Position numbers and translations under genes: made by a program
Shown here: positions 7,411 to 26,521 of the stretch, one piece after another
How the letters are laid out: the number at the start of each line of letters is the position of its first letter
Position numbering within the stretch: position 1 is the stretch's first letter
The notes under the pieces: generated by a model
Databases searched by the model: none
What the model saw: only the letters and a program-made list of their open reading frames with translations
What the model was told of the DNA's origin: nothing
Assembly: GCA_002305115.1 (NCBI GenBank)
Contig: DBQF01000001.1
Coordinates: 373,767-437,766, forward strand
Direction: 5' to 3'
From: a candidate division WWE3 bacterium UBA1401
Lineage (GTDB): Bacteria; Patescibacteriota; WWE3; UBA101185; UBA10185
DNA: 64,000 nucleotides

Positions 7411-8863
7411 GCTTTTACTTTTAATCTTTGGATTGGCTTTGCTTTTACGCTTGTTAGGTATAACCCATGGATTTCCTTTTATTTTTCACCCAGATGAACC
7501 CGCAGTTGTTAGAGAAGCTTTAGCCTTACGGTTCAACAAGAACCCTGGCCACTTTGATTGGCCCCATTTTTTTATCTATTTAAATTACTTTTTGTATATG
7601 CTTTTTGGAAAATTACGGACATTCGCAGAAATGTTAGGGCTAAAGGGTGTGTTACCGGGTATTATTTGGGATGATAATCTTATTTTTTATCTGCTTTCCC
7701 GAGTTTTTGCTGCTACTTTGGGTGCCGCCACTGTTTTTCCCATTTATTTGATCGGAAAAAAACTGTTTACTGAGAAGGCTGGTTTTCTTGCGGCGTTGGT
7801 GTTGTCACTGGTACCTTTTCATGCATGGCATTCGCACTATGCCTTAATTGATGTGCCCATGGTTTTCTGGCTTTCCTGGTCTTTATACTTTTCTGCTAAG
7901 CTTTATTTTGAATCTAAACCTGTTAATTACGTATTAGCTGGGTTGTTTGCGGGGTTTGCTGCTTCTACCAAATATCATGGAGCGTTTGCCTTGCTTGCGG
8001 TTATATTTGCTCATGTGCTTAGAATACAAAATTCCCGTGATGAGAAATTAATAAGTTTTAAAGGCTTACATCTGTTAGGTTTGTCAGGCATGTTTTCCCT
8101 TGTGGGATTTGCCGCGACAACCCCCTTTTCAGTTTTTGATTTTGAAACATTTGTTCGAACAGATGGCCCCAAGGGTGCTTTGTGGCAATTTACCAACGTG
8201 GGAAAAGTTTCTCTCACAACTCAGTTTTGTCAATTAGTTTCAAACTTTCTGCATAAATTCCCAAATGATTTGAGTATTACTTTTCTAGTGGTTTATGCTG
8301 CTTCTGTTATTAAGGTTATCAAAGATAGGAAGCTTAATGTATGGGTGTTGTTGGCGCTACCTTCGCTGCTTTTGTTTTTTTATATTTCCGGCTTTGAAAA
8401 AGATAGATCGCACTATTTCATGGTAGCTTATCCCTTTTTTGTGGTGCTTGTAGGAGCTATGATAGCAGTTTTGTTAACAAAGTTTCATCGGTATGCACCG
8501 CTAGTGGCAACGTTAGTTTTTGCTCTGCCTTTATATTTATGTATCAGAAATGCCTATATTTTCATGCAGACTGATACCAGGGTAATACTTTATGACATGC
8601 TGAAAGATACACCAACAGGTAGTATTATTGTTTATGACGGCGGAGATCTAACGGAGGTTATGACCATTTTTCCAGACGAAACAGTTACTCGGTATAGGAC
8701 TGATAAGGTTATAGACTTTCCGGCCAACCAGACTCATTATTTTATTCAATCTGCTGATGATAAGAGTACGTCGGCTACTGTCTTTGACAATGCTGTTATA
8801 AAGGCCACTATTCCTAACAAGTTGCGTCGTGGACCCTCTATAACTATTTTTGAAATTCTTTAG
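7394..8863 (+). CDS. GT39/GT83-like (ArnT/PMT_2-type) phospholipid-carrier-dependent glycosyltransferase
   Basis: 489 aa. LRLLGITHGFPFIFHPDEPAVV (a DE motif in the first loop) is typical of the PMT_2 family. The protein is polytopic with a soluble C-terminus. Confidence 0.8.
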   Translation: MKRHIKLLLLIFGLALLLRLLGITHGFPFIFHPDEPAVVREALALRFNKNPGHFDWPHFFIYLNYFLYMLFGKLRTFAEMLGLKGVLPGIIWDDNLIFYLLSRVFAATLGAATVFPIYLIGKKLFTEKAGFLAALVLSLVPFHAWHSHYALIDVPMVFWLSWSLYFSAKLYFESKPVNYVLAGLFAGFAASTKYHGAFALLAVIFAHVLRIQNSRDEKLISFKGLHLLGLSGMFSLVGFAATTPFSVFDFETFVRTDGPKGALWQFTNVGKVSLTTQFCQLVSNFLHKFPNDLSITFLVVYAASVIKVIKDRKLNVWVLLALPSLLLFFYISGFEKDRSHYFMVAYPFFVVLVGAMIAVLLTKFHRYAPLVATLVFALPLYLCIRNAYIFMQTDTRVILYDMLKDTPTGSIIVYDGGDLTEVMTIFPDETVTRYRTDKVIDFPANQTHYFIQSADDKSTSATVFDNAVIKATIPNKLRRGPSITIFEIL

Positions 8864-10457
8864 TATGCTTAAGCTTGTGAAAAAATTACAGCTTGAACTG
8901 GCGGTTCTTATAATCTTTGTGGCATCGCGTGTTCCCCACCTTGGCTACGACATTTTTAATACAGATGTTTGGAAATGGAAAGCCCGCACTTACAACTTTG
9001 GTAGTGGGGTTTTTGGTTTAGATTTTGCAGAGACTATTCAGAAGTACCATCCGGGGGTAGTTCTGATGTGGATAGGTACATTTGCGGTCAAGGTTTTTAA
9101 CCTGTTTTATAGTTTTGATGGCGCTGATAATGAATTAGCTCTAATTTTTAAGCTCCACTTTGTTCAGAAACTGTGTGTTGTGATAGTTATAGGCATAACT
9201 ATGGCATTTATTTTTTATGCACTTAGACAGTTATTAGGACTAAAGTATGCGTGTATAGCAGTTTTTCTACTAGCCATAGACCCGTTTTATGTGGCACTTA
9301 CTCGCGTTTTTCATCTAGAGGGGCTTATGTCCACTTTTATGTTAGCTTCGTTTGTATGGTTATACTGGTATCTAAAAGCTTTTCAAAAACACCAGCTTAT
9401 ACTGTCAGCCATTTTTGCCGGGTTGTCTATTCTTACGAAGACATCGAGTCTGTTTTTAGTGCCCTTTGCTGGGCTGGTTTTATTGATTGAGCATTTTATT
9501 TACAAAACCAAGCCGATTAAGTTTCTAGCCTCAACTTTTGGTTTGTGGTTAGGCATAGTTGCTTTAACTTTTGTTTTACTGTGGCCAGCTATGTGGACAA
9601 ATGCCGCAGATGTTTTTACTACTTTGTATAGAGGGATCTTTTCCATTGGTGTAGAGCAGGGTCATGAGCAGGTTTATTTTGGCAGGGTTATGAATGACCC
9701 TGGCATGGGTTTCTATTTTGTTGTGTTGGCATTAAAATCCTCAATTTACTTTTTGCCTGGTTTAGTTGGCTTTGTGTTCTTACTGATTACCCGAAAACTT
9801 TCTATAAAAGACAAACAGTTTGCTTTACACGCGCTTTTATTTGGTGTTTTCTATACTATAGAACTTTCTTTATCTTCTAAGAAATTAGACAGATATATTT
9901 TACCCACTTTACTGAGCTTTACACTGATTTCTACCTTTTTTTACAGGTGGCTTTGGGCAACACTTAGGTTTTATTTGCTGCTGTTATTTTTACCAGCATT
10001 ACTAATTTTGGCTAGAGTACATCCCGATTATTTTTCTTACTTTAGCCCTTATTTTGGGGGATTACGTACAGGTATTACTATTTTGGAACCTAAGTGGATG
10101 ATTGGTGCACGTGGTATTTCCGACTATGTATATTATTATAAAACCACACATCAGTTTGAAGACGTGGGTAATGGGGAAACTGTAGATAGCCTGAAGGCTG
10201 ACGCACTAAAGAAAAAGTTGTTGGTAGGATTTCAGGAGAAGTACTATGCCCAGATCTGGCCATTTGTAAGGGCAGTTGGGGCCGAGACAATTGTAAAAGA
10301 TCTAACCCCACATGCCCGAATGGCCAATATTTTCATTTATCCCGTGTGGAATGATGATTCTTATCTTGAAGATCGTTTTTTGATTAGACCTGTGGGCGAG
10401 ATAAGTTTACGGGGTGTGACTTTATACCGAGTTTATGAACGCTATGAACATCATTAA
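8850..10457 (+). CDS. GT-C-type polytopic membrane glycosyltransferase, paralog of 5872..7410
   Basis: 535 aa. It shares IQKYHPGVVLMW, IDPFYVALTRVFHLEG, ILTKTSS, GVEQGHEQVYFG and SKKLDRYILP in the same order as the equivalent blocks in 5872..7410. Confidence 0.75.
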   Translation: MKFFSMLKLVKKLQLELAVLIIFVASRVPHLGYDIFNTDVWKWKARTYNFGSGVFGLDFAETIQKYHPGVVLMWIGTFAVKVFNLFYSFDGADNELALIFKLHFVQKLCVVIVIGITMAFIFYALRQLLGLKYACIAVFLLAIDPFYVALTRVFHLEGLMSTFMLASFVWLYWYLKAFQKHQLILSAIFAGLSILTKTSSLFLVPFAGLVLLIEHFIYKTKPIKFLASTFGLWLGIVALTFVLLWPAMWTNAADVFTTLYRGIFSIGVEQGHEQVYFGRVMNDPGMGFYFVVLALKSSIYFLPGLVGFVFLLITRKLSIKDKQFALHALLFGVFYTIELSLSSKKLDRYILPTLLSFTLISTFFYRWLWATLRFYLLLLFLPALLILARVHPDYFSYFSPYFGGLRTGITILEPKWMIGARGISDYVYYYKTTHQFEDVGNGETVDSLKADALKKKLLVGFQEKYYAQIWPFVRAVGAETIVKDLTPHARMANIFIYPVWNDDSYLEDRFLIRPVGEISLRGVTLYRVYERYEHH

Positions 10458-11718
10458 ACTGTTCAGGAAAAATCAGCTGCTATCGGGAACTCTTATTGTT
10501 ACGGTTGGTTCCTTTCTTGGCAGTGTCTTCAGCTATTTGTTGCAGCTGTTTTTGGGTCGTAACCTGACAGTTGCGCAATATGGATTGTTTAACGCTTTAT
10601 TATCCTTATCGGTTATTATCTCCGTATTTAATGGTGCTCTTTCCACATCGCTTATTAAAGCTGTGTCTGAACTTAAGGCTCATGAACACTATGGTGTAAT
10701 AACCAAATTATTCAGACAACTCTCTTTACTGGCGCTAGCAGGCGGCATGGTGTTCTTTCTGCTTATTTTATTGTTTAGGCATTCTTTTGCTAAGTTCTTG
10801 CACACAGGTGAAAGTACACTTTTTATAATATTTGGTGTTTATATAGGCATTACGCTGCTGGGGATAATTGCACCTGCTTTCTTGCAGGGGCTGCTAAGAT
10901 TTAAAGCTTATGCCTTCTGGCTTGTTCTTACCAGTGTCTTGCGGTTTCTGTTTCCCGTGCTTTTGGTTTTTGTGGGTTTTGAAGTAAAGGGGGTATTTTT
11001 AGGCATAGCCTTTTCTGTGATTTGTTCTTATCTTGCAGCTGCTTTCTTATTAAGGCGTGATTTTCAAGAAGGGTTTACGGATAAACTGCATAGATATTAC
11101 AAAAAAATACTGATCTTTGCTGGGCCCGTGCTGTTTGTACACTTGGGGTTAACAATCTTAAACAATGCCGATGTGGTTTTAGTTAAGCACTATTTTGATG
11201 CCGATCTGGCGGGTATTTATTCTGGGACAGTTACTCTAGGAAAGATCTTGCTTTTTGGTGCTGGTACTGTAGGTGTGGTCATGTATCCACAAATTGCCGC
11301 AGCTTATGCTAGAAAAGAAGATTATTATGCCAAAATCAAGCCATTTCTGCTTCTTCAGACTGCAGTTGTTGTTCTTGGGCTTGTGGCCTTTGTATTTTTC
11401 CCTAAAGTGTTGACCTTAACGATGTTTGGCAGCAGGTATTTGGATTCTGTAGAATATCTGCCGGGGTTTTCGGTATTTATTGCGTTTTATATCTTAGCTA
11501 ATTTTTTGACATTATTCTTTCTGGCAATTGAAAAAGTAAAGGTGTTTGTTTTGCACATAAGCGCTGTAATACTGCAGCTAGTTTTGATTGCCACATACCA
11601 CGCGGATTTAAATCAGGTTATTTTTATGAATGTAGCTGTTTCCGGACTATTGCTTTTAAGTTTAGTTGGTTACTTTTTTAATAGTCGAAGCCGTGTGGGT
11701 GCTTCTCATACCACTTGA
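10435..11718 (+). CDS. Wzx-type flippase (MOP superfamily), second copy
   Basis: 427 aa and hydrophobic throughout, with a flippase-like N-terminus. The 3' end overlaps the 3' end of galE by 41 nt on the opposite strand. Confidence 0.75.
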   Translation: MNAMNIIKLFRKNQLLSGTLIVTVGSFLGSVFSYLLQLFLGRNLTVAQYGLFNALLSLSVIISVFNGALSTSLIKAVSELKAHEHYGVITKLFRQLSLLALAGGMVFFLLILLFRHSFAKFLHTGESTLFIIFGVYIGITLLGIIAPAFLQGLLRFKAYAFWLVLTSVLRFLFPVLLVFVGFEVKGVFLGIAFSVICSYLAAAFLLRRDFQEGFTDKLHRYYKKILIFAGPVLFVHLGLTILNNADVVLVKHYFDADLAGIYSGTVTLGKILLFGAGTVGVVMYPQIAAAYARKEDYYAKIKPFLLLQTAVVVLGLVAFVFFPKVLTLTMFGSRYLDSVEYLPGFSVFIAFYILANFLTLFFLAIEKVKVFVLHISAVILQLVLIATYHADLNQVIFMNVAVSGLLLLSLVGYFFNSRSRVGASHTT

Positions 11719-12679
11719 CGAGGTTTTCAATACTGGTTTTTAGTGTTCTTGTAGGTGTCCAGTTTAGTAACTTTTTCGCCTTTGAGTTATCTGCATAAAT
11801 TTTTGCGTATTCACCTTTCCTGGTTTCACCTTTTTGCTGAGGAATAGTAGTTTTTGTTATTGATTCTACCTGTTGCACGATTTCTTTTACGGAATAACCT
11901 TTGCCGGTGCCTAAGTTAAAGATGTTACTTGGGTTTCCTTCCATAAGGTAACCCAGGGCTTTCAGATGGGCATCTGCCAAATCATTGACGTCTATATAGT
12001 CTCTAATGGGAGTACCATCAGGTGTGTCTACTTCAGGACATGTCAGATAAAAGGGTTCTATGCCCAAACTACCCCTTACTGCGTTTTGAACAAGTAGTTG
12101 TGAAGGTTTCTTGCTGTCTCCAATAAGCCCATCTTCTGTTGCCCCACAGACATTAAAATATCTTAGGATTACAGATTTAATGTTGTGGATTTGGTTGTAC
12201 CATTTAATAATTCGCTCTGCCATTAATTTAGAATCACCATATGGATTAGTGGGGTTTTGAGGATGTTGCTCATCAACAGGTAAGTATTGAGTTTCGCCAT
12301 AGGTAGCACAAGTTGAGGAAAATACTAAATTGGTGATGTTATGTTGGCGCATGCCCTCTAGAAGGTTAAGAGTGCCAAGCACGTTGTTTTCAAAGTACAC
12401 ATAGGGGTTTTCCATAGATTCGTTTACCAAGCACAGCGCTGCGAAATGTATTACTCCATCGTACTGATTAGTTTTAAGTATTTTTGATATAGCCTCTTTG
12501 TCTCTTAAGTCTCCCTGTACAAAGCTAAGCTTGCCATACTGTTGAAGTGTTTCTATTGCTTGTGCAAATCCTCTAGAAAGATTATCAAATACCGTGACGT
12601 TATACCCCCGAGTTAAGAAAAGTTTTGTTGCATGGCTGCCTATATAGCCCGCGCCCCCTGTTATAAGTACGTTTTTCAT
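11678..12679 (-). CDS. galE: UDP-glucose 4-epimerase
   Basis: MKNVLITGGAGYIGSH Rossmann motif, PYGDSKLMAE (YxxxK), a 333 aa length and overall GalE-like sequence. Confidence 0.9.
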   Translation of the reverse strand: MKNVLITGGAGYIGSHATKLFLTRGYNVTVFDNLSRGFAQAIETLQQYGKLSFVQGDLRDKEAISKILKTNQYDGVIHFAALCLVNESMENPYVYFENNVLGTLNLLEGMRQHNITNLVFSSTCATYGETQYLPVDEQHPQNPTNPYGDSKLMAERIIKWYNQIHNIKSVILRYFNVCGATEDGLIGDSKKPSQLLVQNAVRGSLGIEPFYLTCPEVDTPDGTPIRDYIDVNDLADAHLKALGYLMEGNPSNIFNLGTGKGYSVKEIVQQVESITKTTIPQQKGETRKGEYAKIYADNSKAKKLLNWTPTRTLKTSIENLVKWYEKHPHGFDY

Positions 12680-12725: not shown

Positions 12726-13535
12726 ATGTTGGTTTCAATCATAGTTCCTGCCTACAAACAAGAGAAGACTATAAAAAAGGATATCCAGTGTATCTGTAAT
12801 GTTATGCGTCAAACTCGTTGGCAGTTTGAAGTAATTGTGGTGGTAGATGGCTTTTTGGATGATACCTATGATAAAGCTAAGGAATTAGAGAAGGAAGACA
12901 AAGTGGTTACTGTGGTTGGTTACAAGACGAATAGAGGAAAGGGTTATGCTGTCAGATATGGTATGGCGCGAGCAAGGGGTGATTATATAGCTTTTATTGA
13001 TGCCGGTATGGAAATTAATCCAAATGGTATTTCGTTGCTTTTAGAGCATATGCAGTGGTATGACGCTGACGTCATGGTAGCAAGCAAGCGGCATCCCGCC
13101 TCAAGGGTAAAGCTTTCCAGTATGCGCAAAATATATAGTTGGGGCTACTACTTACTTGTAAAACTACTTTTTGGTCTACGTATTTCAGATACTCAAGCCG
13201 GATTAAAAATCTTCAAACGGGAAGTACTACTTAAGGTTTTGCCCAGGTTATTAGTTAAGGATTTTGCCTTTGACATAGAGCTTTTAGCCGTGGCAAATCG
13301 ACTAGGTTTTACCCGAATTTACGAAGGCCCCGTAGAAATGACTTTGGATTTTTCGGTGGGATCAAAAATCAAGAAAGATGTGTTTTTGTTCCTAAACCCT
13401 ACTATTCGGGGTATGTTAATAGATACGTTTGCTGTGTTTTATCGTATCCATTTGTTGAGGTATTATGATGACGCAAACAAACGTAAGTGGGTATTTGATA
13501 AAGAACTACAGATGAGGGTTAATACAGGTGAATAA
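12726..13535 (+). CDS. GT2 glycosyltransferase
   Basis: MLVSIIVPAYKQE N-terminus, VVVDGFLDDT, AFIDAGME (DxD-like) and a 269 aa length. Confidence 0.85.
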   Translation: MLVSIIVPAYKQEKTIKKDIQCICNVMRQTRWQFEVIVVVDGFLDDTYDKAKELEKEDKVVTVVGYKTNRGKGYAVRYGMARARGDYIAFIDAGMEINPNGISLLLEHMQWYDADVMVASKRHPASRVKLSSMRKIYSWGYYLLVKLLFGLRISDTQAGLKIFKREVLLKVLPRLLVKDFAFDIELLAVANRLGFTRIYEGPVEMTLDFSVGSKIKKDVFLFLNPTIRGMLIDTFAVFYRIHLLRYYDDANKRKWVFDKELQMRVNTGE

Positions 13536-13537
13536 CT

Positions 13538-14551
13538 ATGCACAGCTTTAGCGTTATTATCCCTGTTAGAAGCTATAATGCTTTTCTAGAGGAAAATATT
13601 GCTGCCCTTAAGAAACTAACTTACCCCAAGTTTGAAGTACTCATTGTTTTTGATGAAAATCCCCATCTAGATTTCGCAGATTCGCGCTTCAAGATCCTTG
13701 TTTCCGGCCGGAAAAGCCCCGGAGAAAAAAGAAACATTGGGGCTTCTGCTGCTGTTGGCAACGTTTTGGCTTTTTTGGATGATGATGCCTACCCCAGAGA
13801 AGATTGGTTAGCGTGTGCAAACGAGTTATTTGATAAATATTCTTTATATGCACTAGGGGGTCCATCCCTTACTCCTAAGTCTGCACCTTTTGCTGAAAAA
13901 ATGTCTGGAGTAATACTGGAATCTATTTTAGCAAGTGCCAGCATAGTTCATAGATATAAGCCCTGTAAAGAGATGTTTGTAGACGATTACCCCACTGTTA
14001 ACTTATTTATTAAAAAAGATGCTTTTATGGCAGTGGGGGGTTTTTGTACTGACTTCTGGCCGGGCGAAGATACCAAGTTGTGTTTGGATCTTGTAGAACA
14101 GACAGGCAAGAAATTTATGTACCATCCAAATCCTATTGTGTATCACCATCGCAGACAATTCTTATTACCTCATCTTAAGCAAATTTCTAGATATGGAAGT
14201 CACCGCGGTCAGTTTGCGCGTATCTTTCCCCGGACGTCACGTGTGCCCCGTTACTTCATTCCTTCTATTTTCGTTTTAGGCTTAATTTCTGGTCCATTCT
14301 TAGCTAATTTATGGTTGCCATTCGGGTTTATTTTTTATAGTACTTTGTGGCTCTATACTTTAGTTCTACTTGGATTTTCGCTAAATACAGTTTTTAAAGA
14401 GAAAAACGTTATGGCAGGTCTATACTTTTTTTCAGGTGTTTTATTAACACATATTGTGTATGGCATAAACTTCATTGTTGGATTTGTTAAAAGACCCAGA
14501 TTACAATTAAGGGTGTACGATAAAGCTACCGGTAATTATTTAGGAGGTTAA
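13538..14551 (+). CDS. GT2 glycosyltransferase with C-terminal membrane segments
   Basis: FSVIIPVRSYN, AFLDDDAYP (DxD) and GEDTKLC motifs. The C-terminal ~90 aa are hydrophobic. Confidence 0.8.
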   Translation: MHSFSVIIPVRSYNAFLEENIAALKKLTYPKFEVLIVFDENPHLDFADSRFKILVSGRKSPGEKRNIGASAAVGNVLAFLDDDAYPREDWLACANELFDKYSLYALGGPSLTPKSAPFAEKMSGVILESILASASIVHRYKPCKEMFVDDYPTVNLFIKKDAFMAVGGFCTDFWPGEDTKLCLDLVEQTGKKFMYHPNPIVYHHRRQFLLPHLKQISRYGSHRGQFARIFPRTSRVPRYFIPSIFVLGLISGPFLANLWLPFGFIFYSTLWLYTLVLLGFSLNTVFKEKNVMAGLYFFSGVLLTHIVYGINFIVGFVKRPRLQLRVYDKATGNYLGG

Positions 14552-14747: not shown

Positions 14748-16232
14748 ATGAAAGTAGTAGTTGGATATCCGCCTATTGAAACCACAAAGGGTACTCCGCT
14801 TCTTTCGCAGAACAGACAGTTTCAGTATTTTCATACTCCAACGTATATCTATCCAATGGTTCCTGCTTTTGCGGCTACATTAGCTAAAGAAAAAGGTTAC
14901 GACGCTATTTGGATGGATGGTATTGCAGAAAAGCAGACTTATCAGGAGTGGCTTGATGTACTGATTTCAGAGAAACCGGATGTTCTGATGCTGGAAACTA
15001 AGGCGCCTGTGGTAAAGAAGCACTGGAAAATTATCAACGAATTAAAAGAAAAGATGCCAGATATGAAGATCATTATTGTTGGTGATCACGTAACCTTCTT
15101 GCCCCAGGAGTCTTTAGAAAATTCCCAAGTAGATTTTGTTATTACCGGGGGTGACTATGATTTCGTTTTATCAGATTTGTTAGATTACCTGACAAAAGCA
15201 ACACCTATGCCAAAAGGTGTGTGGGGTAGAAATACGGATGGTACTTTTTGGAATACGGGCCCTGCAGATTTGCATCATAACCTGGATGATTTGCCGTTCA
15301 TTGACCGCGATTTAACCAAGTGGAAGCTGTATGCGTATGAAAACGGCAATTTCAAATATAAACCTGCCACTTATGTTTATTCCGGAAGGGAGTGTTGGTG
15401 GGGGAAATGCACCTTTTGTATCTGGAACCAGGTGTTATACCCACACGGTAGTTACAGGAGCTTTTCTGCTGAAAGACTCTTTGCCGAAGTAAAACATCTT
15501 GTAGATAACTATGGTGTAAAAGAAATATTTGATGACGCCGGATCTTTATTTATTGGGACTAAGCTTAAAAAATTTTGTGAACTTATGATTGAATCTGGCT
15601 ATAACAAAAAAGTGGTTTTTAGCTGTAATATGCGGTTAAATGCATTAACTCAAGATTATTATGACCTTATGGCTAAAGCGAACTTTAGATATATACTCTT
15701 TGGGTTGGAATCGGGTAATCAGGAGACACTGGATAGAATTGATAAAGGTATAAGAGTTGAAGAGATAGAACAAGGTGTCAAAATGGCCAAACAGGCAGGC
15801 CTCGAGCCGCATATAACCATAATGCTCGGGTATCCGTGGGAAACAGAAGAGATGGCTCAAAACACTATAAATTTGGCGAAAGAGTTATTCAAGAAGGGTT
15901 ATGTAGACACGATGCAGGCAACTATTACTATTCCATATCCGGGCACTAAGCTTTATCAGGAATGTCTTGAGAATGACTGGTTTTGTGTTGATCCAAAAGA
16001 CTATGAGGCCTTTGACATGCGTGGCCCGGTTATGAAGACACCGTATTCCAAAGAAAGACTGATGGAATTAACTCAGGCTTTGTACACAGCCTTTATGTCA
16101 CCGCAGTTTATACTTCGCAAGATTTTGTCTATTAGATCTGTTGATGATATTAAGTTTTTTGTGATGGCAGGTAGAAAGTTGATTGGGCATTTGTTGGATT
16201 TCAATAAGGCTGAGGAAAAAGCATCCCTATGA
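14748..16232 (+). CDS. B12-binding-domain radical SAM enzyme (class B-like)
   Basis: The N-terminal ~150 aa look like a B12-binding domain ([14 protein letters not shown]). The radical-SAM core carries [10 protein letters not shown] (C216, C221, C224) and a later GLESG motif. An SD (GAGGAGG) lies upstream, and only 1 nt separates it from the ferredoxin gene. Confidence 0.85.
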
Positions 16233-18457
16233 AAAAAGCATTAGTTACCGGATCTGCAGGTTTAATAGGCTCCGAAGCTGTGCGGTTTCTTGTTACACAA
16301 GGTTTTCAGGTTATTGGTATAGACAATGATATGAGAAAGTATTTCTTTGGAGATGAGGCCAGCACAGACTGGAACAGAAAGCTTTTGGAACAAGAGTACT
16401 CAGACTACAAACACTTTTCAACAGATATTAGGGGTAAATCAGCACTAGATGAAATTTTTGACCAACATAAGTTTGATTTGATAATACATACAGCTGCACA
16501 GCCCTCACATGATTGGGCTGCTAAAGAGCCTTTAACAGACTTTTCTGTAAATGCTTTAGGAACACTCAATTTACTAGAATCCTTCAGAAACTATTGTCCG
16601 GAAGCGGTTTTTATTTTCACATCTACTAACAAAGTATATGGAGATACCCCAAATGAGCTTCCGCTGGTGGAACATGAAACCCGCTTTGAAATTTCACCAG
16701 ATCACAAGTATGCAAACGGTATAGATGAAACAATGTCTATTGATTTTTCTAAACATAGCATTTTTGGTGCTTCCAAAGTTGCTGCAGATATTATGGTGCA
16801 AGAATATGGTAGATACTTTGGGCTTAATACTGTCTGCTTTAGAGGCGGCTGTCTAACAGGTCCTTCCCATAGTGGTACTAAACTGCATGGCTTTCTTGCA
16901 TACCTAATTAAGTGTATTGCTGAAAGCAACCCTTATACGATTTTAGGTTATAAGGGTAAGCAAGTTAGAGACAATATTCATTCAGAAGACTTAATTTCTG
17001 CCTTTTGGGAATTTTATCAAAACCCCAGGCAGGGAGAAGTTTACAATATTGGTGGATCTCGCCACTCCAACGTTTCTATGATGGAAGCCATTGAGAAGAT
17101 AGAGCAGGCTTTTGGGCGCAAAGGAAATATTGATTATTCAGAACAAAACCGTATTGGCGATCACATTTGGTATGTGTCAGATGTATCAAAATTTCAGAAG
17201 CACTACCCTAAATGGCAGTATAAATATAATATAGATGACATAATAGAGGAAATTTGTACCTTTGGCCATTTTTCAATTCCTCAAGTTTCTAGCGTTGTGG
17301 TTTCAGAGATGGAATCCACATTCAGGCAGAAAATATTTGTGGCTTCGCACGTCACTGAGGGTTTTGGTGTAGTACAAGCCCTTAAAGCTTATTTAGTAAA
17401 AAGAAACCCAAGATTTGCTTTTGTAGAACATCCGTTTTCTTATTCGGGTATATCCGGGTCTCGAGTCAGTACCTTCAGATCTAGTTTGCCTTCCACTGAG
17501 GAAGCCAAGAAACAGACACGTAATGTTTTTTTGTCCTTCATTAGAGACTTTGTCTTGTCTATTTATTGGTGTTTTAAAAGAGGTAAGGATAGTACTGTTT
17601 TTGTTGGTGTAGATAGCCTAAATGCTTTGGCAGGGCTAGTACTTAAGAGGTTGGGTTTGAATTTTGAACTGGTTTACTATGCTCCAGACTATACTCCTAA
17701 CAGGTTTGATAATAAGTTACTGAATAAGATTTATCAGACAATAGATAGAGTTGTTTCTAAAGGAGCTGATTATGTTTGGAATATTTCAGAACGAATGCAG
17801 CAGATGCGCGCCGATTTTGTAGAAGAAAGCCGAAATTTGTATGTGCCAAACGGAGTTTATCTAGATAAGGTAAACTTGGAAGCAAGAAAAGGTAGAGATA
17901 TTAATTCTTTAGTTATTTCAGAACATTTAACTAAAGGTAAAGGGCTTGAACTGGTGCTCGACTGCTTCGAGGATATCTTAAAGCTTAATGCTAACGCAAC
18001 TCTTTCTATTCTCGGTACAGGACCTGACGAAAGATATTTTAAAAGTCTAGTTGCCGAAAAACGTTTGCAAGATAAAATTTTCTTCTTAGGTAATGAAACT
18101 CCCGATATTTATCTTAATTATCTTGCAAAGTTTGGTATAGGGCTTTGTTTTAGAGAAGGAGGTGTGGAGAGCTTGGCCTATTATTCAGATCCTACTTCTG
18201 TAAAAGAGTTTCTTTCATGTGGAGTTCCTGTTATAGTAACTAGTAACCTATGGGTTTCGGTTGAGGTTGCAAGCGTACCACTTGGCAAAGCTATTGCGTT
18301 AACCAAATCTGATTTGCTTGATGCTTTAGGAAACCTCTGGCAAGATTCTGATTTATATGGCAAGGCGTCTCGGAATGGACCAGCCTTTAGTAATAAATTT
18401 TCTTGGGAGAAGATCTATCTTAGAGCATTTGCTCATCTTAAAAATTATGACCAATGA
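16229..18457 (+). CDS. fusion protein: N-terminal extended-SDR NAD-dependent sugar epimerase-like domain (CDP-paratose 2-epimerase-like) plus a C-terminal GT4-like glycosyltransferase domain
   Basis: TGSAGLIGS Rossmann motif and STNKVYGD are present, but FGASK replaces the expected YGxSK. The C-terminal ~380 aa are paralogous to the next gene and end with a GT-B C-lobe (ILGTGPDE...[11 protein letters not shown]). Confidence 0.8.
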
Positions 18458-19625
18458 CAAAAATCTGAAAGATCTAACCATAGCCATAGCTACTCATGAA
18501 TATTTCAAGGGCAGCGCGCAAGAATTAAAAGATTACCTGCTGAAAATAAATGCTAATAGGGTAATATATGTTGCCCATAAGTTTTTTTACGCTAAAGATA
18601 GCACTTCTTACAGGGAACTGTATGACCATGGTGAGCTGGTAAGTAAGAAAGAATCACCCAAGATTTTTCCTAATGAATTTCTGCTTTACATTCGCGATGC
18701 TTTTTATAATCTTTATTACTTTCTTACTGTAAAAGGTAGGATAGACCTGTTTGTAGGCTCAGATTCTTTCAACGCTATTTTTGGTCTTATCCTAAAAAAG
18801 CTTGGTAAGGTTGATCAAGTTGTCTTTTTCACTATTGACTATATTATGGAAGACAGGTTTAAGTTTGATATCTTGAACACTATCTACAAAAAAATGGATA
18901 GAATGGCATTTTGGGGCAGCGATTATACCTGGAATGTATCCGATAGAATGTCTAGGCAGCGCGTAGCTGAACTTGGCGAAAAAGCCAAAGAAAAAAAGCA
19001 GCTAGTAGCCCCTATTGGTATACCCTTAGAAGCTCGTAATATTTCGGTTGAAAGAAAAAATAATATTCTGGTTTATAGTGGTGGCTTGACCCCTCATTTT
19101 GGCCTAGAATTAACTGTTCAAGCCATGCCCGCGCTAGTAAAAAGATTTCCTGACGTAAAACTTCGTATTATTGGTGAAGGTGAAATAGGACCCAAACTTA
19201 AACAAATGGCAGAGGATCTGGGTGTATCTGCTAACGTTGAGTTTGTGGGTTATATTGATACTGCGAAAGAAAGAGAAAGGTGGCTTACTCTTCTGAAGGA
19301 AAGTACTTTAGGGTTGGCGCCTTATGAAGCAACAGAGAAGACATACAAAAAATTTTCAGATGTTACCAAACCTAAAGATTACATGTCTTGCGGATTGCCA
19401 GTTATTACAACTTCTGTTATTCCAATTTCTGAAGATATTCAACAGTATAATCTGGGAAGAGTTATAGAAGATAGTGTGCCCTCTTATGTGGAAAAAGTTT
19501 CTGAGTTACTTTTGAATGCTAATGAACGCATCGCGATTGAGAAAAACGTTTATGCCTATTCAGCTAATATGACTTGGGATGCAGTCTATAATAAGGTCTT
19601 TAGTGAGATGGATTTACAGGTGTAA
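18447..19625 (+). CDS. GT4-like glycosyltransferase, paralog of the C-terminal domain of 16229..18457
   Basis: The track ORF starts at 18357; ATG 18447 ([10 protein letters not shown]) overlaps the upstream stop by 11 nt. [19 protein letters not shown]...DYIMEDRF...[19 protein letters not shown] aligns with [19 protein letters not shown]...DYTPNRF...[19 protein letters not shown]. Confidence 0.8.
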
Positions 19626-19627
19626 AA

Positions 19628-20347
19628 ATGCTTACCGACATTTTCAGAAAGTTGAAAATGTATGGGCCAAAAAAATCTTTAGTTTTTCTTTACTACAAGA
19701 TAAGAGAACTTTTGTATTATCAACTGTTACACAATTCTTTTAGTCAACACGGTGAAGATCTTGTTATTGATGCCTTGTTAGGTAATAAAGACCATGGGTT
19801 TTATGTGGACATAGGTGCACACGATCCCCATCTATTTAGTAATACAAAGAGGTTCTATAGAAAAGGTTGGCGAGGTATTAATATAGAGCCAGATGCACAT
19901 TTAATAGAAAAGTTCAAAGCATCTAGGCCTGATGATATTAATCTAAATATTGGAATAAGTAATATCCCAGGCACTCTCACTTTCTATAGGATGTTTCCTG
20001 CTACTTTATCTACATTTTCAGAAGAAGCTGTAAAGAGTTATCTAGACCAAGGTTACGAGCTGGTAGAAAAGCTTCCTGTTCCTGTAAAGCCCTTACGTAC
20101 CGTTTTACAAACTTATGTAAAGAATGCGGAAATAGATTTCATGTCTATAGATACAGAGGGATTTGAGTCCCACGTTTTGGCTAGTAACGATTGGCAAAAA
20201 TTTAGGCCGACAGTAATTTGTATAGAGTCAGAAAATCCCCGTGGATCTGAAGTTGGACCTATTACTCAGAAGTTGTTAGCTTTGGGGTATGTGAAGCATT
20301 TAGATAATGGTATTAATTCAATTTTTGTTGTAAGAAACCATGCTTAG
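19628..20347 (+). CDS. FkbM-family SAM-dependent methyltransferase
   Basis: HGEDLVIDALLGNKDHGFYVDIGAHDP...GINIEPD is the typical FkbM-family core. Confidence 0.8.
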   Translation: MLTDIFRKLKMYGPKKSLVFLYYKIRELLYYQLLHNSFSQHGEDLVIDALLGNKDHGFYVDIGAHDPHLFSNTKRFYRKGWRGINIEPDAHLIEKFKASRPDDINLNIGISNIPGTLTFYRMFPATLSTFSEEAVKSYLDQGYELVEKLPVPVKPLRTVLQTYVKNAEIDFMSIDTEGFESHVLASNDWQKFRPTVICIESENPRGSEVGPITQKLLALGYVKHLDNGINSIFVVRNHA

Positions 20348-21260
20348 TATAAATATACTATGTTGTCCTATTTGTAGAGGTTCGTTAACAAACGAGTCAA
20401 CAAACCTGAGGTGTTCAGATTGCAATGCTTCTTACAGCGTAGCTGATGGTATAGTCAGAGCCTTATTACCCAACCAAAGTGCTGATCTAGCTTTGTCTTT
20501 GTCTAGATGGGATGCCATCTACGCACAGAGTTTAGCAACCGGTAGTTATTTGGCTAACTTACAGGTATATAAAGAGACATACTATGAAGATTTACTGGCA
20601 CAGATTACTGAAGAAACTGATTTAAAGGATAAAGTTTATTTGGAGGTAGGTTGCGGTCCTTTTTATTTTGGTCACCTTATAGCGCGAGACTGTAAACTAG
20701 TTATTGGAATAGATTTTTCTTTCAATGCACTGGTTATAGCTAAAAAACTGTTTGACTCTGCTGGCATAACTAACTACATACTTATTCAAGGTGATGTTTT
20801 GCAACTTCCCTTGAAAGACCACAGTGTGGATTTGGTTTATGGTGGAGGAGTAATGGAACACTTTAATAATTCTCAGGCCTACCTTAATGGTCTTTACACA
20901 GTTTTAAGGCCTGGGGGAATTGTTTTTAACACTGTCCCATTTTTGAACATAGGCAGTTTAACTTACAGACAGCTTTGGGGTAACATTCCTAATGTGCCTG
21001 TACTAAAACAAATCTTTGAGTTCATTCACATTAAACTATTTGGGGGCAGATTCATGAGATTTGGCTATGAACTGGCCTTTCTTGTTTCCACTTTGTGCAA
21101 ACTCCATAAGAAGGTTGGTTTTTCCGAAGTATCCGTTTCCCATTTCAAAGTAGCGCTTGTGTTTGAAGCCTTGCCACGTTTTTTACGTAGACCCTTTGTT
21201 TGGTTGGCCAATAATTCTAAGGCTTTCTGGCCCATGGTAAAGGTAGTAGCAAAGAAATGA
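20340..21260 (+). CDS. class I SAM-dependent methyltransferase with an N-terminal Trm112-like zinc ribbon
   Basis: CCPICRGSL...LRCSDCNASYSVADGIV zinc ribbon, followed by LEVGCGPFYFG (motif I). Confidence 0.8.
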   Translation: MLSINILCCPICRGSLTNESTNLRCSDCNASYSVADGIVRALLPNQSADLALSLSRWDAIYAQSLATGSYLANLQVYKETYYEDLLAQITEETDLKDKVYLEVGCGPFYFGHLIARDCKLVIGIDFSFNALVIAKKLFDSAGITNYILIQGDVLQLPLKDHSVDLVYGGGVMEHFNNSQAYLNGLYTVLRPGGIVFNTVPFLNIGSLTYRQLWGNIPNVPVLKQIFEFIHIKLFGGRFMRFGYELAFLVSTLCKLHKKVGFSEVSVSHFKVALVFEALPRFLRRPFVWLANNSKAFWPMVKVVAKK

Positions 21261-21973
21261 GTACAGATCATTATAAAGTACAAAGTGATTATTTTGATAA
21301 AGTTGCTCTGACTTTGGGTGACAAGTTCGATTCTCCTACAAACCATTTTGAGGTTGATAACTTTCTCGCAACTATAGGAGTAGAGTACGCCACCAGGAAC
21401 GTGCTGGACGTAGGGGCTGGCACTGGCAGGTACTCACTCCTGCTATTGCAAAAAGGCTACACTGTTACAGCTACAGACATTTCGGAAAAGTCGCTACAAG
21501 TTTTAACCACTCGAGCAGAAGCTTTAAATTTGGCTGACAGACTTACCACTAAGGTTACAGATATGGAGACACCGGAGTTTAACAAGGAATTTGATCTGGT
21601 TTTTAGCGTTAACTTACTCCATCACGTGGAACATATGACTACAGTTTTTAGTAGTATGGTTGCCGCTACAAAGGTTGGAGGTAAAGTTGCTGTACTAGAA
21701 GAAAACCCTATAAATCCCTCATTTTATCCTTTTCATATTCTAAATGGCCGTTGGCAGTACGAGAAAGGTATATATAAATGCACACGGGGTAATTTACTAA
21801 ATTTGTTTAGGAACAGCCATCTAACAGACATTCAGGTAACAAATTACTTATACTTTCCTACCAGATTTGTACTTAAGTATCCGTTTTTACACAGATTAAA
21901 CACATTTTTGAGCCACGTGCCCATACTCAGGTATTTGTCTTTGTTTCAGATTTTATATGGCAAAAAACTCTAG
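21257..21973 (+). CDS. class I SAM-dependent methyltransferase
   Basis: VLDVGAGTGRYSLLLLQKGYTVTATDIS (motifs I/II). There is an ATGA overlap with the upstream gene. Confidence 0.8.
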   Translation: MSTDHYKVQSDYFDKVALTLGDKFDSPTNHFEVDNFLATIGVEYATRNVLDVGAGTGRYSLLLLQKGYTVTATDISEKSLQVLTTRAEALNLADRLTTKVTDMETPEFNKEFDLVFSVNLLHHVEHMTTVFSSMVAATKVGGKVAVLEENPINPSFYPFHILNGRWQYEKGIYKCTRGNLLNLFRNSHLTDIQVTNYLYFPTRFVLKYPFLHRLNTFLSHVPILRYLSLFQILYGKKL

Positions 21974-22967
21974 AGTTGAGTTATCAATTATTATTGTCAC
22001 TTATAACAATGCGAACTGGTTGCCAGATTGCTTAACTTCATTGCAAGCTCAGATATTTACTGATTACGAGCTTATTGTTGTTGATAACGCTTCTTCTGAT
22101 AATTCTATTGCTTTAGTACAAAAATATTTTCCTGATTCTAAGGTATTCGCACTGGATGAAAATGTTGGGTTTAGCAAGGCTAACAATCTTGGAGTGAAAA
22201 ACGCTCACGGTAACAGAGTACTGTTGCTAAATAGTGATACCCGAATGTGCTCACCTGGATTTTTGAGTTCTTTCCTAAAGGAACAGCAGAAAAATCAACT
22301 CGATATATGTAACCCGCTTATTTTAAATGCTCAAGGTGTAGACCCCTTAGCCGGGCTTTATATGGGGATGGACATTGTAGGTTTTCCTGGCCCCAGCCCA
22401 AAACTTTTTTATATAGATGGGTGTTGTCTATTAACGTATAAGCATGTGTATGAAAGGTTAGGAGGTCTAGATGAGGACTATTTCATGTATAGTGAAGATA
22501 TTGACTTCAGCTGGCGTGCCCGGTTACTCAATTTGCGGTTAGGAATATGCAGAAGTTCAGCTATTTTACACTATGGGGGTGGTAGTACAGAAAGTACCCG
22601 ATCTGGTACCAGGGGAGTTTATAAAGTACCTGCATTTAGAAGGTACGAAGTTGAGAAAAATATTTTATCTAACCTTCTAAAAAATTATGGAGTCTACAAT
22701 CTTACCTGGGCGATACCTTTGTTTCTGGTCTTAAATTTTTCCGAAGCATTATTTTATTTAATGCTAGGGAAGTTATGGCTTTCCCGCAAAGTATTATTGG
22801 CTGTTTGGTGGAACGTACGTAATATAAACCACACTCTCAAGAAGCGCAGGCAAGTGCAGCAAACCCGGCAAGTTAGTGACTCTACACTTTTAAAAAACGT
22901 TCATTTAAAACTAAATAAAGTCCAAGCCCTTATAAATATTGGAGGGATCCCAAAGTTTACTAACTAG
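21957..22967 (+). CDS. GT2 glycosyltransferase (rhamnosyltransferase-like subfamily)
   Basis: LSIIIVTYNN, VVDNASSDNS, GFSKANNLG and EDYFMYSEDIDFSWRA motifs. Confidence 0.85.
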   Translation: MAKNSRVELSIIIVTYNNANWLPDCLTSLQAQIFTDYELIVVDNASSDNSIALVQKYFPDSKVFALDENVGFSKANNLGVKNAHGNRVLLLNSDTRMCSPGFLSSFLKEQQKNQLDICNPLILNAQGVDPLAGLYMGMDIVGFPGPSPKLFYIDGCCLLTYKHVYERLGGLDEDYFMYSEDIDFSWRARLLNLRLGICRSSAILHYGGGSTESTRSGTRGVYKVPAFRRYEVEKNILSNLLKNYGVYNLTWAIPLFLVLNFSEALFYLMLGKLWLSRKVLLAVWWNVRNINHTLKKRRQVQQTRQVSDSTLLKNVHLKLNKVQALINIGGIPKFTN

Positions 22968-22968
22968 T

Positions 22969-23910
22969 TTATTTCCACGCTTGCAGATCTCTCTGTAGCA
23001 GCTGTTCTATAGTTTCAACCTCCTGCCTAAATTCTTCCTTTAATTTCTGCTCTGTTGCTTTGGCCATAGGAGGATAGCTTTCACTTGTATACATAATTTT
23101 CCTGTAGGCTTTTTTTATAAAGCAGTCTGTATTTATTAGATTATTTAGTGCCCTATCCATCTTTAGTTCAAGCATGGTGTTGATGGCAAAATCGGTTATT
23201 TCTGCTATAAATGGATGTCTTAGTTTGGTAGTTTTGTTTTTACGTTTGTATAGTACTGATGGCTCAAAGCTGGAATCTACTCCTATAAACTCATAAACTT
23301 CTTTTAATGTTTTTTTTGGATTATCTCTAATATCCAGCAGTGGTACTACTAGCAGTTGCTCCTTGCTAAATATATCCATACAGTTTTTTATATGAGTAGC
23401 AAACCTTGCTTTGCTTTTGTGATAGGGTTGTGTTGTATTTTCTGAGGCTATTGCTTCTTCAAAAGTGTCTGGCATTTTGTGGTGTGCGTGTGAGTATTTC
23501 AGGTACCAGTAAAGTGAATACAGAAATCTCACAGGATTTCTTATGGCAAGAATGATCCGAATGTTGGGAAAAGCTTCTTTCACCTTCATTAGTGCTGGTT
23601 TGTCAAAAACATACTGAATGCTAAATTCTCCCCTTTTTTTACCTGTATCCCAAGAAAAATCATTACGGTATTCATCGACAGTTTTTAATCTATTTATGGT
23701 GTAGACATTTTGGAAAAACTCATTATCTTGTGGAGGGCTTAAGAAGAAATGTGGCTCTTTGTGTTGGGAAAAATCAATTTCCGGGTGTTCACTAAGACAC
23801 GCAACCAGCCATTCTGTTCCGCACTTGGGTGTGCCTACACCCATAAAATCTATTGTGAAATCACTCGGAAAATTCATGATATTAACGAAATCACCATATG
23901 ATGATACCAT
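22969..23910 (-). CDS. PAPS-dependent sulfotransferase family protein
   Basis: GVGTPKCGTEWL matches the 5'-phosphosulfate-binding loop (PKxGT). AIRNPVRFLYSLY matches the 3'-phosphate-binding motif (RNPxxR). It is a lone minus-strand gene between plus-strand operons. Confidence 0.75.
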   Translation of the reverse strand: MVSSYGDFVNIMNFPSDFTIDFMGVGTPKCGTEWLVACLSEHPEIDFSQHKEPHFFLSPPQDNEFFQNVYTINRLKTVDEYRNDFSWDTGKKRGEFSIQYVFDKPALMKVKEAFPNIRIILAIRNPVRFLYSLYWYLKYSHAHHKMPDTFEEAIASENTTQPYHKSKARFATHIKNCMDIFSKEQLLVVPLLDIRDNPKKTLKEVYEFIGVDSSFEPSVLYKRKNKTTKLRHPFIAEITDFAINTMLELKMDRALNNLINTDCFIKKAYRKIMYTSESYPPMAKATEQKLKEEFRQEVETIEQLLQRDLQAWK

Positions 23911-26361: not shown

Positions 26362-26521
26362 AATTTTAGGGATAATCTCTTTATTAATTAGCTCACTGTT
26401 ACTTATTAGGTTAATGTTTGTTGTAGGGTTTAATCCTGCTGGGCTCAAAGCAGCCGAGGCATTCTTCATAAGCTTTTTGGTTTCTTTTGCTCTTATAGTT
26501 ATTGCAGAAAAATTCGAATGA
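26354..26521 (+). CDS. unlisted 55-aa two-helix membrane micro-protein
   Basis: My own translation is MFRILGIISLLISSLLLIRLMFVVGFNPAGLKAAEAFFISFLVSFALIVIAEKFE*. Its ATG overlaps the upstream stop (ATGTTTAG) and its TGA overlaps the downstream start (ATGA). It fills an otherwise empty 156-nt gap and is below the 60-aa cut-off of the ORF track. Confidence 0.45.
   Translation: MFRILGIISLLISSLLLIRLMFVVGFNPAGLKAAEAFFISFLVSFALIVIAEKFE

Follow-up and report, generated by a model that had tools for sequence, protein, structure and literature searches.

Can a short-chain dehydrogenase/reductase (SDR) for nucleotide sugars remain an enzyme when the catalytic Tyr of its family is replaced by Phe, and what role might such a domain have in one polypeptide with a glycosyltransferase (GT)? 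The question is raised by a gene in a 64,000-nucleotide stretch of DNA (hereafter, the window) from the candidate division WWE3 bacterium UBA1401 (contig DBQF01000001.1, positions 373,767 to 437,766). An open reading frame (ORF) of 742 amino acids at window positions 16229..18457 (+) joins an extended-SDR domain resembling cytidine diphosphate (CDP)-tyvelose 2-epimerase (TyvE) to a GT-B domain, and Phe179 occupies the position of the SDR catalytic Tyr. SDRs of this kind (F-type SDRs) most likely constitute a very large, previously uncharacterised sister clade of TyvE in which the catalytic Tyr is constitutively Phe. For the fusion itself, the reading that we favour, with confidence that stays a little short of even, is that of a two-domain surface-glycan enzyme, in which an active module would modify a nucleoside diphosphate (NDP)-sugar by a non-tyrosine mechanism and feed the attached transferase. 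The parts of the fusion are as follows.

16229..18457, + strand: F-type SDR + GT-B fusion, whole ORF (full-length homologues P0002-P0022)
16229..17263, + strand: extended-SDR (TyvE-like) domain, residues 1-345 (PF01370, PDB 9rl0/1orr, AlphaFold)
17291..18454, + strand: divergent GT-B (GT4-like) domain, residues ~355-742 (PF00534/PF13692, AlphaFold, Foldseek)

The ORF is uninterrupted, and its ATG shares the tetranucleotide ATGA with the TGA of the upstream radical-SAM gene. In Pfam, Epimerase (PF01370) matches residues 4-275 (E 1.1e-43; 149.8 bits against a cut-off of 20.9) and Glycos_transf_1 (PF00534) matches residues 561-672 (E 3.1e-9; 37 bits against a cut-off of 26.4), with PF02719 (Polysacc_synt_2) covering only residues 5-136 (35.6 bits); in NCBIfam, no model reaches its cut-off for either half. 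The SDR domain contains the motifs TGSAGLIGS and STNKVYGD, and its best PDB matches are the CDP-tyvelose 2-epimerases 9rl0 (E 1e-44) and 1orr (E 6.8e-42); the next is a deoxythymidine diphosphate (dTDP)-glucose dehydratase (E 1.9e-21), and GalE also lies far behind. The initial annotation, made from the letters alone, had described a single 742-residue ORF composed of an extended SDR and a GT-B domain, these two motifs, and a likeness to paratose/tyvelose 2-epimerases, all of which are borne out. The same SDR + GT-B architecture is found in 21 homologues (46-60% identity over 82-100% of the query; two of the 21 with an extra GT-B domain), the nearest full-length ones being in metagenome-assembled genomes of Saccharimonadales, WWE3, and other Patescibacteria. 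Because these homologues are built alike, the fusion is, by homology, real.

The Ser/Thr-Tyr-Lys triad is incomplete in the SDR domain: Thr133 and Lys183 are kept, and Tyr is replaced by Phe179.

16763..16765, + strand: codon TTT, Phe179, at the SDR catalytic-Tyr position (alignment to TyvE, codon check)
16775..16777, + strand: Lys183, the Lys of YxxxK, kept (alignment, invariance)
16625..16633, + strand: Thr133-Asn134-Lys135, the TNK segment with the triad Thr kept (alignment, invariance)

HMMER alignments to both 9rl0 and 1orr pair HSPYGCSK of TyvE with HSIFGASK of the fusion, such that Phe179, Lys183, and Thr133 correspond to Tyr164, Lys168, and Thr124 in the numbering of the TyvE papers, and a MAFFT alignment gives the same pairing of Phe179 with the catalytic Tyr. 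The assignment of Phe179 (TTT at 16763-16765) and Lys183 to the YxxxK motif in the initial annotation is therefore confirmed, as is its control, the GalE-like ORF 11678-12679 (-), which carries PYGDSK. In both AlphaFold models, a helix begins at Ile178-Phe179, in agreement with helix α6 of TaTyvE, which begins at Pro163-Tyr164 (PMC13098431). Another Tyr as the general base was considered and rejected, since neither HMMER nor MAFFT moves any Tyr onto position 179; the invariant Tyr137, Tyr196, Tyr225, Tyr241, and Tyr272 would, by inference from the alignment, map to the VYG motif, helix α6, or the nucleotide side rather than to the catalytic site.

The TTT codon, as read from the assembled sequence, differs from TAT by one base, which in principle leaves room for an error of sequencing or assembly, or for a mutation that inactivated the gene recently in this genome, just as the fusion might in principle result from a lost stop codon. 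The distribution of Phe at position 179 reduces the probability of such explanations to almost nil. A search of 5.8 billion proteins yielded 620 relatives, of which the 120 best were used for motif and architecture counts; position 179 is Phe in 117 of the 119 nearest homologues in which the motif was found (one Met, one Leu), and Lys183 is kept in all 119. An exhaustive HMMER scan of 1.84 billion cluster representatives (50% identity) gave 850 with E ≤ 1e-30, and the best 149 of them carry Phe (127), Tyr (12), Leu (5), Met (2), or Thr, Ala, or Ser (one each). In a scan of one genome per GTDB species, at least 573 loci were confirmed, of which the best 80 were compared and 71 used for neighbourhoods; all 68 scorable loci encode Phe at this position, by TTT in 46 and TTC in 22, so that both Phe codons are in use. 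Moreover, the identical 742-residue protein is recorded from NCBI and from an independent Logan re-assembly. Because Phe is clade-wide and the same protein comes from two sources, a T/A error or a private mutation is effectively excluded, and a lost stop is at odds with the 21 homologues of the same fused architecture. Phe179, which the initial annotation had treated as peculiar to one gene, is instead a family signature. Met or Leu replaces Phe in P0014, P0101, and the representatives P0166, P0174, P0182, P0192, P0199, P0227, and P0235, and such members, together with the Tyr-bearing ones, may represent subgroups that could help to date when Tyr was lost.

A neighbour-joining tree places a long branch between the F-type clade and TyvE. 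The best 80 of the at least 573 loci share 63-77% identity with the N-terminal domain of the window protein and are found in Patescibacteria, Bacteroidota, Planctomycetota, Cyanobacteria, Chloroflexota, Desulfovibrio, Acidobacteria, Omnitrophota, Elusimicrobia, and other hosts; the carriers in Bacteroidota include cultured Chitinophaga, Fibrisoma, and Chryseobacterium. Where standalone homologues are extended at the N terminus, extra domains were considered and set aside, as the extensions look like mis-called starts. Across 72 sequences of all architectures, about 85 of 349 positions are invariant. In 19 orthologous SDR + GT-B fusions, mean pairwise identity is 70% in the SDR half (131 of 345 columns invariant) versus 34% in the GT half (10 of 368 columns invariant). 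Such conservation indicates that purifying selection on the N-terminal domain is extreme, and the counts at position 179 indicate that Phe there is a selected state.

Most residues that hold the cofactor and the phosphates in TyvE are retained, and the sugar pocket has a composition of its own.

16250..16270, + strand: GxxGxxG NAD-binding motif, Gly8, Gly11, Gly14 (invariant in the 72 sequences and in representatives that cover the N-terminus)
16502..16516, + strand: Pro92-Ser93-His94-Asp95-Trp96, in place of the TyvE sugar-pocket segment Val83-Ala84-Met85 (alignment; His94 invariant and clade-specific)
16850..16888, + strand: loop with Cys208, His214, and His220, corresponding to Ser193 and the lid loop Gly197-Trp207 of TaTyvE (alignment; all three invariant)
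16961..16969, + strand: Gln245-Val246-Arg247 (GKQVRD), ribose/phosphate residues corresponding to TyvE Gln235 and Arg237 (alignment, invariance)
17150..17164, + strand: Arg308-x-Gly310-Asp311-His312, Arg308 corresponding to the phosphate-binding Arg299 of TyvE (alignment, invariance)

In TyvE, Gln235, Arg237, and Arg299 bind ribose/phosphate, and Trp207, Trp210, Phe211, and Asp204 recognise cytidine (PMC7851689). In TaTyvE, the Val-Ala-Met (VAM) segment and the lid loop Gly197-Trp207 contact or close over the sugar, whose hydroxyls are touched by Gln205, and the TNK segment has a described role as well (PMC13098431). Within the 72 sequences, Gly8/Gly11/Gly14, Asp66-Ile67-Arg68, His87-x-Ala89, Thr133, Lys135, Lys183, Gln245, Arg247, and Arg308 are invariant, and Asp32 and Ala90 are kept in at least 90%. 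Residues specific to the clade and not present in TyvE are Pro92-Ser93-His94-Asp95-Trp96, Cys208, His214, His220, His251, and Asp311-His312, and the pocket exchanges Met85 to His94, Ser193 to Cys208, Gln199 to His214, and Gln205 to His220 are all invariant; the sugar pocket thus appears re-lined with His and Cys, and not decayed. The nucleotide of the substrate is probably not CDP, because the cytidine contacts Trp207, Trp210, Phe211, and Asp204 are not conserved and read Phe222, Tyr225, Leu226, and Leu219 in the fusion.

An additional stretch follows strand 2: residues 33-48 (16325-16372, +) read N33-x2-R36-x-Y38-F39-F40-G41-x2-A44-x-T46-x-W48, with Asn33, Arg36, Phe40, and Gly41 invariant across all architectures and Tyr38, Phe39, Ala44, Thr46, and Trp48 invariant among the orthologous fusions. 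This motif falls at Asn32-Tyr39 of TyvE, residues which form dimer-dimer contacts and among which Arg35 binds NAD (PMC13098431); it might serve for interaction with a partner or as an altered lid over the cofactor.

The structure prediction proposed in the initial annotation gives an intact SDR fold and a GT-B fold. The N-terminal domain, modelled by AlphaFold from an alignment of 72 homologues, has a mean predicted local distance difference test score (pLDDT) of 92.3 and a predicted template modelling score (pTM) of 0.92, and superposes on 1orr with a template modelling (TM) score of 0.89-0.91, a root-mean-square deviation of 1.9 Å, and 32% identity, so its TyvE-like fold is predicted to be intact. 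Confidence is lowest at residues 91-100 and 211-220, the segments that line or close the TyvE sugar pocket. In the full-length model (pLDDT 77.8, pTM 0.73), the GT-B fold is confident for residues ~355-742 (pLDDT ~90), and a Foldseek search with the C-terminal domain leads to the GT4 sucrose-phosphate synthase 6kih.

The F-type SDR is in nearly all cases coupled, by fusion or in operons, to unrelated GT families whose sole common feature is an NDP-sugar donor. Architectures among the 120 nearest homologues are distributed as follows.

SDR + methyltransferase + GT2: 53 of 120
SDR + GT4-like GT-B (the window architecture, query included): 22 of 120
SDR + WecG/TagA GT26: 22 of 120
GT6 + SDR: 1 of 120
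remaining fusions (to other GT domains, or with an additional region of no assigned family): ~5 of 120
standalone SDR: ~16 of 120

The remark in the initial annotation that such a fusion is not a standard architecture does not hold: 22 of the 120 share it, and about 80 more are joined to other GTs. In the triple fusions, the GT2 part is similar to AglJ and to dolichyl-phosphate hexose transferases. The coupling extends to genes that are not fused: at locus L006, a free GT26 with 64% identity to the fused GT26 domain lies directly downstream of a standalone SDR, and at loci L003 and L004, a DPM1-like GT2 gene overlaps the F-type SDR gene, with no other SDR within 8 kb. A 247-residue GT2, related to dolichol-phosphate mannose synthase (5mlz, E 8e-18), GtrB-like sll0501, and ArnC, is present in 26 of the 71 loci; it and a Tyr-bearing TyvE-like SDR are the two neighbours met most often.

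In the reading that we favour, the F-type domain would hold NAD(H) and bind an NDP-hexose via the conserved Gln/Arg phosphate clamps. The sugar would be modified, most plausibly by epimerisation through a transient keto intermediate (NAD-linked oxidation), with the proton transfers left to acid/base groups that are not Tyr. The hydroxyl that reacts would be in contact with Thr133, which would hand its proton to a neighbouring ionisable residue, for which Lys135, His94, and His220 are candidates; Cys208 and His214 may also line the pocket. The product would be used directly by the attached GT-B domain to extend a lipid- or glycan-linked acceptor, and the paralogous GT-B encoded next door would probably use the same product. 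The route by Thr133 is modelled on PglF and WbpM, two nucleotide-sugar SDRs of the Mx3K type that are active although the Tyr is naturally Met; in PglF, Thr395 and Asp396 take up the hydroxyl proton (PMC8987622). The parallel is not exact, as Thr is followed by Asn in the fusion. The binding of NAD, the catalytic activity, the identity of the base, and the sugar made are all inferred; what is observed is how the protein is built and conserved, that it retains the binding motifs, and that it is coupled to GTs.

Several points weigh against this reading. The relay of PglF is not literally transferable, as Asn rather than Asp follows Thr133. In canonical epimerases, Tyr-to-Phe variants have served as inactive forms, as in GalE S124A/Y149F (1a9y, 1a9z) and UGAepi Y149F (6zlj). 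It is the TyvE alignment and published structure descriptions, not measured distances, that put His94, Cys208, His214, and His220 in the pocket. Free interchange of Tyr and Phe, which would have indicated that the hydroxyl is dispensable, is weakened by the 12 Tyr-bearing representatives themselves, in which changes at positions 197 (Phe to Tyr) and 133 (Thr to Ser) are correlated with Tyr while the Cys/His signature is kept; these may form a distinct subgroup. No paper on an Fx3K or Phe-type nucleotide-sugar SDR was found in the literature searched, with much subscription literature lying outside that search. Finally, a Tyr-bearing TyvE-like SDR (STSRVYP, RSLYGxTKL; E 3e-45 to 9rl0) is directly adjacent to the F-type SDR in 25-36 of the 71 loci, and this adjacency would be equally consistent with the two proteins sharing the work such that the F-type one carries out no redox chemistry.

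The last point bears on an account that is rather improbable, namely that the F-type SDR is an active epimerase or isomerase of non-redox acid/base type, which would use a pair of Cys208 and His on an NDP-keto-sugar supplied by another SDR (perhaps the Tyr-bearing neighbour elsewhere and the GalE-like enzyme in the window), NAD being only structural. Loss of the Tyr hydroxyl would be harmless if no alcohol is oxidised, and the invariant Cys and His recall Cys109/His179 of GMER and the proposed Cys133/His90 of WbmF (PMC2279256). However, the Tyr-type partner has no copy in the 64-kb window or at loci L001 and L003-L008, and it is missing in about half of the 71 loci; F-type SDRs are fused to GTs, with no fusion to a Tyr-bearing SDR among the 120 nearest homologues; and Thr133 and Lys183, residues of redox chemistry and of nicotinamide-ribose binding, are still invariant.

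The adjacent paralogue is also consistent with a second account, unlikely though less so, in which the domain is a non-catalytic pseudoenzyme, an NAD/NDP-sugar-binding module that would present the donor to the GT, oligomerise, localise, or regulate it, or stabilise the Tyr-bearing paralogue in a hetero-oligomer. The SDR general base is missing and the binding residues are kept, the clade-specific stretch with Asn33, Arg36, Phe40, and Gly41 lies at the dimer-dimer contacts of TyvE, and NmrA provides a precedent for a non-enzymatic SDR (PMC2279256). Heteromeric SDRs with inactive subunits also exist, as in the β subunit of petunia benzaldehyde synthase (PMC13418739) and, as far as the reference list of that paper indicates, in BbsCD and KAR. 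In the petunia β subunit, however, a residue that binds the cofactor is lost together with a catalytic one; in F-type SDRs, only the Tyr is gone, and the motifs for cofactor and substrate are invariant. In 25 loci with two SDRs, mean identity is 67% for the F-type versus 54% for the Tyr-type protein (62% for the GT2), and F-type identity is higher in 99% of 300 locus pairs; a pseudoenzyme that is more conserved than both its putatively active Tyr-bearing partner and the fused GT would be unexpected. Mere binding does not readily explain the gain of four invariant ionisable pocket residues, nor does stabilisation of a paralogue fit L003 and L004, where the F-type SDR occurs with only a GT2. The initial annotation had proposed either a dead binding module or an alternative mechanism; the evidence leans away from the dead module without deciding between the two, given that the Tyr-less state is fixed in the clade, that the SDR half is the most conserved, that the residues for NAD and phosphate and the triad Thr and Lys are invariant, and that His and Cys have been gained.

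The F-type SDR, the Tyr-bearing TyvE-like SDR, and the 247-residue DPM1/GtrB/ArnC-like GT2 form a recurrent cassette that is found from Patescibacteria to Bacteroidota, with high mean identities of about 68%, 55%, and 62%, respectively. At loci L013, L014, L017, L019, L022, L028, L034, L042, and L045, the SDR lies at ~10001-11050 and is followed by its partners at +1 and +2; at L055, L062, L064, L067, and L078, the Tyr-type SDR is upstream. At L064, from Chitinophaga sp. YR573, the F-type gene spans 10001-11062 and the Tyr-type gene 8928-9995. Neither cassette SDR reaches the cut-off of any NCBIfam family, and the cassette itself is not in the window. The idea that the triple fusions are simply a fused form of an SDR/217-residue methyltransferase/247-residue GT2 cassette is not supported, as the methyltransferase parts have no BLAST similarity and the GT2 parts share 22-32% identity.

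Under the favoured reading, the GT-B half would use the product of the SDR half, and its own sequence is divergent. GT4 enzymes bind the donor through the motifs GRLxxxKG and EX7E. At these positions the GT-B half reads SEHLTKGKG and D654-x5-E660, and the canonical motifs are not conserved among orthologues. The invariant columns are His401, Tyr488, Arg492, Asp506, Arg527, Leu561, Asp654, Gly665, Pro667, and Gly686, of which Leu561, Asp654, Gly665, and Pro667 fall in the GT4 donor-motif region; a sequence search of PDB with this half gives nothing better than E 0.3. If either half is unorthodox as an enzyme, it is, as far as these motifs indicate, the transferase half. A related gene follows immediately.

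18357..19625, + strand: GT-B gene, paralogue of the fusion C-terminal domain (61% identity to P0002 residues 745-1130, 30% to residues 382-738)

P0002 (1130 residues) has the architecture SDR + GT-B + GT-B, and its third domain matches this downstream gene. Since the gene product shares 61% identity with the third and 30% with the second domain of P0002, the two transferase modules are evidently paralogues that have been fused in some genomes. As listed, the downstream ORF overlaps the fusion by 100 nucleotides; its true start is probably near 18447-18465, because homology begins only at its residue 37.

The fusion lies within a glycan cluster whose other members are as follows.

712-1440, + strand: DPM1-like GT2
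1440-3497, + strand: DUF2079 membrane protein
3494-4969 and 10435-11718: two flippase-like genes
5857-10457, + strand: three tandem PMT_2 GT-C genes
11678-12679, - strand: GalE-like gene
12726-14551: two GT2 genes
14748-16232, + strand: B12-binding radical-SAM gene, with the ATGA overlap at the fusion start (translational coupling)
19628-21973: three methyltransferases
21957-22967: further GT2
22969-23910, - strand: sulfotransferase-family gene
23926-26361, + strand: 811-residue ORF without a Pfam match at E ≤ 1e-5, flanked by the sulfotransferase and AftD-like GT-C genes
26518-29466, + strand: AftD-like GT-C

The PMT_2 GT-Cs, the DUF2079 protein, the AftD-like GT-C, and the DPM1-like GT2 together suggest extensive extracytoplasmic glycosylation that depends on polyprenyl-phosphate sugars, and the opposite-strand sulfotransferase inside the cluster hints at a sulfated glycan. 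The nearest NCBIfam model to the radical-SAM gene is that of hopanoid-associated HpnJ (E 3e-56, below the cut-off). Related radical-SAM genes occur near F-type SDRs at L001 (two copies), at L006, and in 6 of the 71 genome loci (within five genes). The B12 radical-SAM protein was therefore rejected as an obligatory partner, though it recurs in clusters of the candidate phyla radiation. Genes for CDP-3,6-dideoxyhexose synthesis (cytidylyltransferase, CDP-glucose dehydratase, E1/E3, paratose synthase) are present neither among the ORFs scanned at 712-29466 nor among the 25 commonest neighbour families of the 71 loci.

A more general proposal, which we regard as possible but well short of probable, is that F-type SDRs form a distinct catalytic class, in which NAD-linked or acid/base chemistry without Tyr, in a His/Cys-lined pocket, would supply one specific sugar donor to at least four GT families and to polyprenyl-phosphate pathways in hundreds of species of more than 12 phyla, including Patescibacteria with reduced genomes. 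The Ser/Thr-Tyr-Lys triad is the textbook rule by which nucleotide-sugar SDRs are called active, and it also accounts for the database label "CDP-paratose 2-epimerase" on these proteins. It is broken here by a whole clade, which comprises no fewer than 149 clusters at 50% identity and at least 573 loci, one per species, and which is among the most conserved parts of its glycan clusters. Should the clade be active, it would provide a second natural Tyr-less route to sugar nucleotides after the Mx3K dehydratases, it would point to an unassigned sugar in the surface glycans of many uncultured bacteria, and the automatic annotations of thousands of genes would be wrong. Should it be inactive, GTs would have as partner a pseudoenzyme of unusually wide distribution and tight conservation. 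Either outcome is directly testable, since there are cultured carriers (Chitinophaga, Fibrisoma, Chryseobacterium), with standalone orthologues in, for instance, Chitinophaga sp. YR573 and Fibrisoma montanum. Nucleotide-sugar SDRs without Tyr and SDR fusions in sugar pathways are known; what appears to be new is a large clade of Phe/His/Cys type that is systematically coupled to transferases.

The closest solved and characterised relative is TyvE (EC 5.1.3.10; 1orr, 9rl0), with 31-33% identity and a TM score of ~0.9. F-type SDRs share with TyvE the extended-SDR fold, the GxxGxxG motif, STNKVYG with its TNK, the segment HS-x-aromatic-G-x-SK with its Lys, GKQVRD, and the Arg phosphate clamps. 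They differ from it in the replacement of Tyr164 by Phe, of VAM by Pro-Ser-His, of Gln199 and Gln205 by His, and of Ser193 by Cys, in the loss of the cytidine contacts, in the RxYFFG insert after strand 2, in the fusion to GTs, and in lacking a CDP-dideoxyhexose context. Since it matches TyvE neither in the Tyr and the VAM/Gln205 pocket nor in the contacts to cytidine and the surrounding pathway genes, the F-type SDR is, on comparative grounds, not a TyvE, and the label "CDP-paratose 2-epimerase" given by some sources is unsafe for this reason.

PglF and WbpM resemble the F-type SDR in that the catalytic Tyr position is filled by a hydrophobic residue. These are, however, Polysacc_synt_2 proteins with Met and Thr-Asp-Lys, whereas the fusion has Phe and Thr-Asn-Lys, and 4,6-dehydration is not implied. 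WbmF of Bordetella, an NAD-binding SDR with an incomplete triad, has been suggested to be a pure 3,5-epimerase that works without redox chemistry (PMC2279256); like the F-type SDR, it lacks one triad residue and has Cys and His in the pocket. Unlike the F-type SDR, WbmF lacks the Ser/Thr but has the Tyr, is a distant relative without fusion to a transferase, and has a role that is only proposed.

The pathway ArnA-ArnC-ArnT, in which an SDR is followed by a polyprenyl-phosphate GT2 and a GT-C, offers a parallel at the level of gene context, as F-type SDRs are mostly associated with GT2 proteins similar to DPM1, AglJ, or ArnC (53 fusions, 26 of 71 neighbourhoods) and the window holds a DPM1-like GT2 gene and several GT-C (PMT_2, AftD-like) genes. 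In contrast to that pathway, there is no formyltransferase, aminotransferase, or decarboxylase signature, and the SDR in the window is fused to a GT-B rather than a GT2. Benzaldehyde synthase, an α2β2 enzyme (PMC13418739), and, so far as they are described there, BbsCD and KAR resemble the frequently adjacent F-type and Tyr-type SDRs in pairing an SDR that lacks a catalytic residue with an intact paralogue. Unlike the β subunit of benzaldehyde synthase, the F-type SDR has no cofactor motif missing; it is also better conserved than its partner and is often found by itself, and its pairing is known from gene adjacency.

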